A stretch of 64,000 bases of DNA, from assembly GCA_964619405.1 (NCBI GenBank), contig CAZUCF010000003.1, positions 25,192 to 89,191 of the forward strand. The letters are read 5' to 3'. The position numbers and the translations under genes are program-made. Numbering within the stretch: the first letter of the stretch is position 1; each line of letters opens with the position of its first letter. The notes beneath the pieces are model-generated. The model was given only the letters and a program-made list of their open reading frames with translations, had not been told where the DNA came from and made no database searches. Below are positions 29,695-34,686 of the stretch, piece by piece. The DNA comes from an uncultured archaeon. GTDB lineage: Archaea; Iainarchaeota; Iainarchaeia; Iainarchaeales; JAAZKV01.

Positions 29695-30942
29695 TTAACC
29701 AATATTTTTTAAAAACTCTTTTTTTATCCTAAAACAATTCGCATGCTTAAAATGTCCAAAATAAGAAGCTTTAGTTGATTCGAATTGCTTTTTATCAAAA
29801 TCATCTAACTCTTTATTTTTTACTAATTCATTATAACTACTTATTTTTTTCTTGAAATTTGTTAAAACCCTTTTTCTCACATAAACAGAATAAGGTCTTA
29901 TAATATAACCAAGAAAATCAATCCCATTAGTTAGAGGTAAAAGAATTGATTCTTTTTTCAAATCAAGTAGCAAATTACTTTTAACAAAAAACAAAATCCT
30001 AAAAAAACAATCTAACAAAAAACTTTTGCTTTTTGAAAGCAAAATAAAATCATCAACATACCTAACATAATGTTTGATTCTCAATTTTTGTTTTATAAAA
30101 AAGTCAAGTTCGTGCAAATAAATATTGGCAAAAAACTGGCTGGAATAATTACCAATAGGCAAACCCTTGTTTTTTTCTGTATTGAATAAAGATTTGTGTT
30201 TCGGAATTTTTTCCCAATATTTTTCTCTTGATTTTTTAACAAAATTTTCTTGAGGACAAGAAAAAACAATTATTTTTAACAGAAAAATTAATTCTTCTTT
30301 TTGATTAAAAGAAAACAAATCAGAAGAGACAACTCTCTTTTTTATTAATTTAAAGAGTATTTTCTTATCAATACTCATAAAAAAATTCTGTACATCTAGT
30401 TGTAAAAAATAACCCCTTTTATAAGATTTCGAACTATTCTGATAGGATTGAGTAAACTTTTTTAAACACTTAACTGCTTTATGCGTTCCTTTCCCTTTTC
30501 TACAAGCATAACTATCAAAAATAAACCTTTTCTCATAAATCTTTTCTAATTCTTTTACCAAAATATGGTGGACTATTCTGTCTCTAAAATCAGCTGCAAA
30601 AATTTCTCTTGGTTTTGGTTTTAAAACAACAAAACAAACAGAACGCCTCGGAACATAAGTCTTATTGTTTAAAAAAGAATGTAAATCGAAAAGATTTTGC
30701 TCTAAGTTCTTTTCAAACTTTAAAGCATTACTATTATTTCTTTTTCCTTTCCTACATTCCTCGTAAGCTCTGTAAATGTTTTCTATCCCAAGGATTGTGT
30801 CTTTTTCCGAACGAACACACCTAACTCCGTTGTTGTTGTCGTTAGTCTTATTGTCGTTGTTGATATTACCATTGTTGGAATTCAAGTTGTAAGCGTTACT
30901 AGTATTACTAGGAACAGTAGAACTATTTTGTGGAATATTCAT
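29695..30942 (-). CDS. diversity-generating retroelement reverse transcriptase
   Basis: RT motifs LDVQNFFMSI, the DGR-specific GLPIGNYSSQFFANIYL, YVRYVDDFILL and IDFLGY. The first roughly 46 codons of the only ATG-initiated frame are the template repeat itself. Confidence 0.9.
   Translation of the reverse strand: MNIPQNSSTVPSNTSNAYNLNSNNGNINNDNKTNDNNNGVRCVRSEKDTILGIENIYRAYEECRKGKRNNSNALKFEKNLEQNLFDLHSFLNNKTYVPRRSVCFVVLKPKPREIFAADFRDRIVHHILVKELEKIYEKRFIFDSYACRKGKGTHKAVKCLKKFTQSYQNSSKSYKRGYFLQLDVQNFFMSIDKKILFKLIKKRVVSSDLFSFNQKEELIFLLKIIVFSCPQENFVKKSREKYWEKIPKHKSLFNTEKNKGLPIGNYSSQFFANIYLHELDFFIKQKLRIKHYVRYVDDFILLSKSKSFLLDCFFRILFFVKSNLLLDLKKESILLPLTNGIDFLGYIIRPYSVYVRKRVLTNFKKKISSYNELVKNKELDDFDKKQFESTKASYFGHFKHANCFRIKKEFLKNIG
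30804..30918 (-). repeat. DGR template repeat (TR)
   Basis: Aligns with 31599..31710. It is adenine-rich on the coding strand (AAC/AAT codons, translating to NSNNGNINNDNKTNDNNNGVRCVRSE), and the 3' 26 nt are identical to the VR. Confidence 0.85.
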
Positions 30943-31145
30943 AACTAAAAAAACCTCAGTCTTAATAGTGTCTTTTTCGCCTCACAAATTTTTTTTGGCA
31001 TATGGCTTTCCACATCAAAAAGCACCTAACCATTAAACACTCTTATCCCAAAGGATAAAATTCTGGGCACAATTCTGTTTGCTTTCTAACAACTTTGTTG
31101 TTAGTACCCACTAAATTAGTGAGAATAAATTACTAACACACTTTT

Positions 31146-31490
31146 TTATTGGACACTATTACTCCAACCATTTGCTTGCTTTGCTAAATCAACTATTAAA
31201 CCAGTTGAATAAATATAAGAATTAAAATTATGAAAAACCTTCGCTTCCTTACACAAACGAACAATCATTTTTAATTCCTCAACCAAAACAACCAACTCTC
31301 TTAAAACAATTTTTTTATCAACAAGAGAATTTGCTTTTGCAATACAAACACATATTTCTCTACTCTTATTTCTCAAATCACTTCCAAGAGTATATTTATT
31401 ATACCTAGAAAAATTCTTCACAATCTTTTCAAAATACAATGCTAAATCAAACGCTTTCTTATAAATCGACAAACTATCATATTGAGCCAT
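31146..31490 (-). CDS. avd: Avd-like accessory variability determinant (four-helix-bundle / 23S rRNA IVS protein family)
   Basis: 114 aa with a predicted helical-bundle sequence, MAQYDSLSIYKKAFDLALYFEKIVKNFSRYNKYTLGSDLRNKSREI, typical of the family. It lies between the target gene and the TR. Confidence 0.7.
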   Translation of the reverse strand: MAQYDSLSIYKKAFDLALYFEKIVKNFSRYNKYTLGSDLRNKSREICVCIAKANSLVDKKIVLRELVVLVEELKMIVRLCKEAKVFHNFNSYIYSTGLIVDLAKQANGWSNSVQ

Positions 31491-31515
31491 ACACAAACAC
31501 CACTTTAAAATTTTC

Positions 31516-31536
31516 GTGCCGCGCCCTTTCGGGCAC
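31516..31536 (-). other. GC-rich GNRA-tetraloop hairpin downstream of the VR
   Basis: The minus strand reads GTGCCCGAAAGGGCGCGGCAC. GCCC-GAAA-GGGC forms a 4-bp stem with a GAAA loop (an alternative is a 5-bp GTGCC/GGCAC stem). It sits 58-78 nt after the target stop codon. Confidence 0.4.
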
Positions 31537-31593
31537 TTTCTTTTTTCATCTCCCACTTAACCTCTAAACATAAAATTTTAAATCATCAAATTT

Positions 31594-32652
31594 TTAACTT
31601 TCCGAACGAACACACCTAACTCCGAACTTGTCGTCGCTAGTCTCATAGGCGGAGAGGATACCATCGAAGGAATTCAGGTAGTACGCGTAACCAGTAGAGC
31701 TAGGAACAGTGGTGCTTGACCAATAACCAAAACAAGTCGAATTCCAACCAGTTTGAGTAAAAACACTATTCAAATAACTCGAAGAAGGGTAACTCATGTC
31801 AGGCAAAGTTGCTAACTCAACAAAAGAAGGAACTCTCCAGTCACCAACACTAGAACCGTCAGTCAAACCATCAACACCATTAGCAAGAGTACTACAATAA
31901 CTCAAAGCACTCTCCCCACTCTCCCAAGTAACAGTCTTACAAGTACCCCCACTCATTCTATGATTCTTCTGCCAACACAAACCAGTATGATTATCTAAAA
32001 CAGTCCCACCACCACAACCATCAGCAGTATAACTTTTTGCAGTACCATCCTGCTCTTTATCATCCAAATCCCCAACATCATAACTAGTTGTTTGACCACT
32101 ATGAAGTTCAACCGCAAAAGGGCATTGATCAGCTAACATATTAGCATTAACAGTGTAAGGCGTGCAATCAAAAAAAACTTTTGAAGGATAACGCTCTGTT
32201 TTTGTCAAACCTTGACGAGTAACATAAGTAACAACCAAATCCTCTTGCAAAATCTTTCCTTCCTCACACACTGTTTCAGCATCAACTACAAAATACTTTG
32301 AACCACCCTGAGCCAAATCCTCTGAAAACAAAACCTCTTCACCACCAAGCTCAATCTTACTAATAGTCAAAATATTGCCAGTATTATTCAACAACTTAAC
32401 AGCAAACTCTCCATCACTATTAACCATTGACTCGGTAACACCAATACTAGAAGACATTACAGCCAACTCACTAGAATCGCTAGAAACACTAGAACCAGAA
32501 TCAAGAAAACCAACTAACAAACCAACAACCACAAGAGAAATAACAATAACAACACCAATTATTACAAGGTATTCTATGGTTCCTTGTCCTTTAGAATTTT
32601 TAACAAAACACTCACCAAAAAACATTTTAACTACACCCCTAAAAAAAACCAT
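31594..32652 (-). CDS. DGR target: type IV pilin-like (class III signal peptide) protein with C-terminal DUF1566/C-type-lectin-fold variable domain
   Basis: N-terminus KGQGTIEYLVIIGVVIVISLVVVGLL (archaeal prepilin-like). C-terminus GLCWQKN...DWRVPSFVELATL...YWSST...FGVRCVRSES (DUF1566-like), ending in the VR. Confidence 0.85.
   Translation of the reverse strand: MVFFRGVVKMFFGECFVKNSKGQGTIEYLVIIGVVIVISLVVVGLLVGFLDSGSSVSSDSSELAVMSSSIGVTESMVNSDGEFAVKLLNNTGNILTISKIELGGEEVLFSEDLAQGGSKYFVVDAETVCEEGKILQEDLVVTYVTRQGLTKTERYPSKVFFDCTPYTVNANMLADQCPFAVELHSGQTTSYDVGDLDDKEQDGTAKSYTADGCGGGTVLDNHTGLCWQKNHRMSGGTCKTVTWESGESALSYCSTLANGVDGLTDGSSVGDWRVPSFVELATLPDMSYPSSSYLNSVFTQTGWNSTCFGYWSSTTVPSSTGYAYYLNSFDGILSAYETSDDKFGVRCVRSES
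31599..31710 (-). repeat. DGR variable repeat (VR)
   Basis: 112 nt at the 3' end of the target CDS are homologous to the TR. Mismatches fall overwhelmingly at TR adenines. Confidence 0.85.
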
Positions 32653-34521: not shown

Positions 34522-34686
34522 ACAAACAAATAACCTTATTAAACTTATAAATATGTCGTTTCAAAAAAAACGTAAATAACCGTTTTTTTAATAACAAAAA
34601 AATAATGCTTTTATTTAATACAAACACAAACCAAAAGCTTTCTTATAAATTGGTAAAGAATCGTATTGAGCTATAAAAAAATAATT

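Follow-up and report, generated by a model that had tools for sequence, protein, structure and literature searches.

The window studied here, a 64,000-nucleotide stretch of contig CAZUCF010000003.1 from an uncultured archaeon, carries a diversity-generating retroelement (DGR) whose template repeat (TR) and variable repeat (VR) differ at more than the adenines of the template. A preliminary description of this DNA had proposed that the element is decaying or recently quiescent, or that the VR belonging to this TR lies elsewhere in the genome. The host is a DPANN archaeon with an assembly of 958 kb (28% GC, 36 contigs) that is 89% complete. All parts of the element lie on the minus strand in a chromosomal cassette, in the order target gene with VR, avd, TR, and reverse transcriptase (RT) gene. 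Together they make up a complete and otherwise ordinary DPANN-type DGR.

The target gene (31594..32652, minus strand, as are all features below) encodes 352 amino acids, and its translation matches the Pfam models Lcl_C (E=8.6e-20) and Class_IIIsignal (E=1e-4). The protein consists of an archaeal class III (pilin-like) signal peptide, an N-terminal domain, and, at the C terminus, a lectin-like Lcl_C/DUF1566 domain whose last part is the VR. Lcl_C (PF07603) occupies residues 216-349, and the majority of 186 homologs of the target carry the same domain. The VR (31599..31710), delimited by its alignment with the TR, is 112 nt long and forms the final 37 target codons (residues 314-350), at the C terminus of the lectin-like domain. 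About 65 nt past the VR, between it and avd, folding reveals a GC-rich hairpin (GTGCCC-GAAA-GGGCGC, 31516..31536) that is conserved in the alignment with two relatives, L060 and L062.

The putative avd gene (31146..31490) encodes 114 amino acids from an ATG at 31490, and its open reading frame (ORF) extends to a GTG at 31556. Its product resembles Avd, a four-helix-bundle protein, and matches the models bAvd (36.3 bits, cutoff 40, E=8.6e-9) and DivGenRetAVD (35.6 bits, cutoff 80, E=8.8e-9), in both cases below the cutoff and over the full profile length. Homologs that are 96% identical to it carry PF22296.

A spacer of 203 nt separates avd from the RT ORF (29695..30942, 415 amino acids), which matches RVT_1 above the cutoff (E=9e-16). 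Its translation contains IGNYSSQ and YVDD, corresponding to the [I/L]GxxxSQ and YxDD motifs of DGR-type RTs. NCBIfam, which has no model for DGR RTs, returned weak matches to other RT families. The TR (30804..30918; 115 nt, 44 adenines), delimited by its alignment with the VR, is embedded in the RT ORF at its 5' end and read in the VR frame, about 27 nt past the sole ATG (30942) that precedes the RT domain. The window shares this in-frame layout with at least 12 relatives (among loci L026, L028, L031-L034, L016-L021, and L002), and the TRs of L029 and L030 fall in a different frame that is still open. An Rfam scan of the cassette gave nothing at E <= 0.1.

Differences between the template and variable repeats

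The TR and VR were aligned with MAFFT and by local dynamic programming, and both alignments agree. The repeat is far beyond chance: blastn aligns the TR with the VR at E = 3.6e-20, and the window contains their common 24-nt 3' end twice versus 0 expected. The last 27 nt (CGGAGTTAGGTGTGTTCGTTCGGAAA...) are identical in VR and TR and the flanks diverge beyond them, as at an initiation of mutagenic homing (IMH) sequence. An apparent similarity 5' of ACTGTT was discarded as lying outside the repeat, with a 4-nt gap and many mismatches. Nineteen of the 42 aligned template adenines differ in the VR (10 to T, 5 to G, and 4 to C). Thus, 19 of 23 substitutions fall at adenines, which make up 42 of the 112 aligned positions, and this is the adenine bias by which DGRs are recognized.

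The four remaining substitutions lie among 70 aligned nonadenine sites. Three are synonymous: AGT/AGC (TR 30907 T, VR 31699 C), GCT/GCG (TR 30892 T, VR 31684 G), and TTG/CTG (TR 30885 T, VR 31677 C). The fourth, AAC/AAG (TR 30832 C, VR 31627 G), is a third-position change from Asn to Lys. In addition, one TR codon, AAT (30865..30867), has no counterpart in the VR, where GGT-AAT-ATC is represented by GGT-ATC with the gap between 31660 and 31659. No gap-free alignment is possible, and both methods place the 3-nt gap at GGT[AAT]ATC. The exact alignment therefore reproduces the 19 adenine-site differences, the four nonadenine differences, and the missing codon of the preliminary description, and removes neither the indel nor the mismatches. 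That account also held that three of the four were synonymous third-position changes; three are indeed synonymous, but only two of these are at third positions, because TTG/CTG is a first-position change. The apparent 5' clustering of the nonadenine differences is not significant (p about 0.08). With four such mismatches in 112 aligned nucleotides and a 3-nt gap, the pair exceeds a strict limit of at most two per 100 bp at equal length.

Related elements provide a baseline for these numbers. Fourteen TR/VR pairs or TRs were collected by a genome search and a metagenome scan; the accompanying RTs are 55-83% identical to the window RT, and G010 and L033 are identical to each other. Here, G-, L-, and P-numbers label the related loci and proteins that were compared with the window cassette. 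Nine clean sister pairs (G029a, G010=L033, G022a, G035, G022b, L029, L032, L034, and a partial L026) contain only two mismatches in 624 nonadenine sites, and the only gap among them is in G022a, where 3 nt are missing in an AAC repeat. Against this baseline, the window pair (4/70) is an outlier (Fisher p = 0.0012; Poisson p about 9e-5). One sister element is truly decayed: in G029b (L021, 650-760), there are four nonadenine mismatches, and a 2-nt insertion within the VR puts the target gene out of frame.

The sister templates also permit each difference to be assigned to one of the two repeats. The TR of L026, whose RT is 83% identical to the window RT at the amino acid level, differs from the window TR at only 3 of 115 positions, and the other closest templates, those of L027 and L028/L032 (RT 76-77% identical for L028/L032), are likewise near-identical to it. 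At the GCT/GCG site, GCG is found in all sister TRs (L026, L027, and L028/L032, and also L029, L030, and L031) and in the window VR, and GCT is found only in the window TR. Therefore, TR position 30892 mutated after the VR was last written there. At the other three sites, the closest sister TRs have AGT, TTG, and AAC, as does the window TR, so the VR states at 31699, 31677, and 31627 are derived. No sister TR or VR lacks the missing codon, which is AAC in the sister TRs, and 11 of 11 homologous targets have it at the protein level as well; the deletion therefore occurred in the VR. Comparison with related genomes, which the preliminary description had recommended, thus places one derived state in the TR and places the three others and the codon loss in the VR.

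State of the element and origin of the differences

The term "decaying" is not supported for this element. The target gene, the avd gene, the A-rich TR, and the 415-residue RT are all intact. Pairwise ratios of nonsynonymous to synonymous substitution rates (dN/dS) for the RT are 0.15-0.20 in comparisons with L026, L027, and L028. When changes private to the window RT branch are polarized with an outgroup, 26 are synonymous and 21 are nonsynonymous, a ratio below those of the L026 and L027 branches, so that constraint on this branch is no more relaxed than on those of its sisters. By these measures, the RT is under purifying selection, on its own branch too. Moreover, identity to L026 is 97% for the TR and 82%, at the nucleotide level, for the RT gene. 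VRs of relatives that lack TR and RT (L060) or have a truncated TR (L062) show two to three nonadenine differences from the TR consensus, a count of the same order as that of the window VR. These features suggest an element that is quiescent or rarely active rather than degenerating.

Real decay does occur within the family, but it takes other forms. In L060, L061, L063, L064, and L065, which come from unrelated studies, a target gene with its VR is followed by an avd gene cut at ...VVLVEE and by an ATPase_2/DUF234 gene, and both TR and RT are absent. The protein P0193 joins the N terminus of Avd to the final 40 residues of an RT. In L035 (536-949), all that stands in front of the RT is the 3' half of a VR-like repeat, and this stump shares one reading frame with the truncated RsmI-like methyltransferase gene to which it is fused.

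A separate irregularity is seen in L027 (470-570), where the repeat beside the RT has TR-type flanks on both sides. Its interior contains many A-to-N changes as well as a 1-nt insertion, by which the ATG is shifted to another frame. Either this TR has itself been mutagenized or the assembly is chimeric.

We tentatively interpret the window cassette as an intact DGR whose VR has for a long time not been fully overwritten by template-derived complementary DNA (cDNA), an explanation to which we give somewhat less than an even chance. Both repeats would have gathered ordinary mutations after homing was last completed. The TR would have acquired one silent G-to-T change, and the VR two silent T-to-C changes, one C-to-G change at a hypervariable codon, and the deletion of one codon. 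Meanwhile, the machinery would have stayed intact and under selection, with the element quiescent or rarely active. Its observed basis is how the repeats align, which of them carries each derived state, the intact genes, and a mismatch count above that of sister elements. The interpretation takes the assembled VR and TR to lie on the same molecule and the VR-side changes to have arisen after homing, not during it.

The preliminary description had attributed the differences to drift since the last homing event. Comparison with the sister templates establishes this for at least one difference, the GCT of the TR. For the three VR-side substitutions, drift is the most likely source to judge by the sister baseline, because sister elements are almost free of errors at nonadenine sites (2/624 versus 4/70).

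If the two silent VR changes are due to drift, synonymous divergence of the VR at sites not templated by adenine is 2/24.3 = 0.08 (95% confidence interval 0.01-0.30), and the corresponding value for the window RT branch is 26/204 = 0.13. Such values could serve as a rough clock for the idle time of an intact DGR. Several points weigh against drift as the full explanation, and the first is this estimate itself, which, rough as it is, implies a surprisingly long idle time for an RT that is still under purifying selection. Second, indels opposite AAC are usually ascribed to RT slippage (PMC5758913), and length changes recur in the family (G022a, -3; L062, +18; P0017, +2 amino acids). Third, AGC and C-TC (the C-TG state) are present in the more distant L029 TR, and AGC is also present in the L062 VR; two of the VR states thus recur in the family, and AGC and C-TG may not be new mutations. 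Finally, the proportion of synonymous changes, three of four against an expected fraction of 0.35, is not a significant excess (p about 0.1).

Alternative origins of the imperfect repeat

The RT itself might have made the three VR-side substitutions and lost the codon during the last homing event, by misincorporation opposite U or C and by slippage at GGTAATATC. Only the G-to-T change in the TR would then be later drift, and the DGR may be fully active. Such departures are documented: non-A-to-N changes were reported for 23% of DGRs and length differences for 7%, 74% of surveyed indels adjoin AAC, and several nonadenine changes are frequent in DGRs of the candidate phyla radiation (CPR) (Wu et al. 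2018, PMC5758913). The missing codon, AAT in the window and AAC in the sisters, is exactly such a case and lies within a TA..TA microrepeat. VR lengths vary within the family, and the RT is under purifying selection. The gap in G022a falls in AAC repeats that are perfect in the TR and no longer so in the VR, which favors slippage on the template. However, sister RTs that are 57-83% identical have produced only 2/624 such mismatches, and at that rate three errors in one pass over 70 sites have a probability of about 0.0015. In addition, misincorporation by bRT-Avd at U, C, and G is about baseline, at 0.3-1.6% (PMC7826257). The TR-side change is left unexplained by this mechanism; because it is a mutation of the TR, RT error can account for at most part of the irregularity. 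We consider RT infidelity unlikely as the source of the VR-side changes, although by no means far-fetched.

An 18-nt insertion in the VR of L062 (about 330-400) resembles a second copy of the TR segment GGT-AAC-ATC-AAC-AAC. This copy has its own, different adenine-site substitutions, as expected from recopying of the template or from a duplicated TR.

Another possibility, which we regard as rather doubtful, is that the VR and TR derive from different coexisting cassette alleles, so that the nonadenine differences are differences between two TR lineages. This might reflect real recombination that imported a lectin domain with its VR beside the resident TR and RT, or an assembler that joined two strains within a conserved stretch of avd. 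The same porB-AbiEi-AbiEii region, at 99.7-100% identity to the window, recurs in Logan contigs of five runs, of which three are sibling runs and two are later ones. Two sibling-sample contigs, L055 and L056, match the window (99.7-100%) over about 5 kb comprising porA/B, AbiEi, AbiEii, and the target gene over its first ~566 nt. At ~32085, both switch to another Lcl_C allele (~80-86% identical), which replaces the window allele over 31765..32085 (minus strand) and, in L056, differs by 45 mismatches and an 18-nt indel. The contigs of all five runs end within the cassette or at its border (32912, 32666, 32650, 31992, 31765, 31368, and 30172). L054, the sole contig retrieved by an exact look-up of the RT, is 100% identical to the window from the RT and TR to 31368 and stops inside avd. 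Contigs thus carry a different lectin-domain allele and break in or at the cassette, from which it follows that several cassette haplotypes coexist. The presence of AGC in other lineages is also consistent with an exchange of this kind.

Several observations argue against a mixed origin of the window pair, however. The TRs of the subclade that includes the window and L026 are near-identical, and a donor from this group would explain only GCG, not AGC, CTG, AAG, or the missing codon. The 3' 27 nt of the VR match the window TR exactly, and L028 and L029 differ there. The window lectin-domain allele groups with those of L060 and L062, whose Avd proteins are 96% identical to that of the window, and therefore the cassette looks coherent. 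Exact-protein look-ups of the target and of three variants of the Avd start retrieved no other contig with this VR. The VR of the alternative allele was not found either; a homology search with the C-terminal fragment of L055/L056 returned nothing closer than 75%.

A related and improbable scenario is that the locus is a swap site, at which coexisting strains exchange lectin-domain/VR modules in front of a shared TR and RT. If so, the imperfect VR would be a recently adopted foreign module that has not yet been rewritten by the resident DGR, and recombination and mutagenic homing would be two layers of diversification acting on the same pilin-like protein.

Very improbable indeed is the proposal that the true target of the TR is another VR elsewhere in the genome, with the window VR as an old secondary target: although remote targets are known for other DGRs (PMC5758913) and a small part of the genome is unseen in this assembly, searches of all 36 contigs by blastn-short and with the TR adenines as wildcards found no second VR, and neither a second Lcl_C domain nor another RT or full-length Avd turned up when the target, RT, and Avd served as tblastn queries. 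Two weak wildcard matches, on C13 and C14, were not backed by blastn. The 24-nt repeat end has no match in viral contigs. Among 185,579 species, each represented by one genome, it occurs outside the window only in an orphan target of one member of the same genus. The locus in question (L067, JABHJM010000051.1), in a Candidatus Iainarchaeum metagenome-assembled genome (MAG), has a DUF1566 target with the same 24-nt VR end, and what follows it is a Kae1/TsaD-like gene, with no avd, TR, or RT.

The only extra match in the tblastn searches is a 19-codon relic of a second avd (34617..34673, minus strand). A gap of 14 nt separates it from the preceding porB, and the AbiEi/AbiEii pair is downstream of it. 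It shares 77% identity with the beginning of the live avd, with ATA in place of ATG and a stop codon at its end. Such a relic is a sign of an earlier cassette or of a rearrangement at the locus.

Comparison with known systems

With its putative avd, the window cassette has the same parts in the same order as the DGR of Bordetella phage BPP-1 (mtd-avd-TR-brt), and both elements have identical VR and TR 3' ends and a GC hairpin downstream of the VR. In BPP-1, however, the VR equals the TR at all nonadenine sites, and a noncoding spacer lies between TR and brt. In the window, by contrast, TR and RT share one continuous ORF, and ~65 nt separate the VR from the hairpin.

With respect to its target, the element resembles the Legionella pneumophila DGR (LdtA), which belongs to the DUF1566/CLec2 "category d" of Wu et al. 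In both, the VR is at the C terminus of a DUF1566/Lcl_C domain and ends in ...VRCVR. The Legionella element differs in that it is bacterial, has a lipoprotein target, and uses an RT of another lineage; moreover, the window TR lies inside the RT reading frame.

The element also resembles the DGRs of DPANN archaea and Nanoarchaeota described by Paul et al. (2015, PMC4372165; variable protein AvpA), which also reside in tiny, AT-rich genomes of archaeal hosts. These share the order target-avd-TR-RT, a C-terminal VR in a lectin-like fold, and adenine-biased mismatches. In contrast to them, the window target combines a DUF1566/Lcl_C domain with a class III signal peptide. The filter of Paul et al. 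allowed no more than two nonadenine mismatches per 100 bp, and the window pair, with its codon gap besides, would not have passed it.

In its irregularities, the window pair is like the DGRs with "noncanonical mutagenesis" of Wu et al. (PMC5758913), which show non-A-to-N substitutions and indels of 3n nt opposite AAC-type codons. Those authors attribute AAC-adjacent indels to RT slippage and accept noncanonical cases as DGRs. Such mismatches and indels are therefore a known phenomenon, although they are usually dropped by DGR detection filters or put down wholesale to RT infidelity. The present case adds no new mechanism, and its point is a modest, methodological one. Unlike the differences in that survey, those of the window can be polarized by near-identical sister TRs, and at least part of the irregularity is then recognizable as plain mutation after the last homing event.

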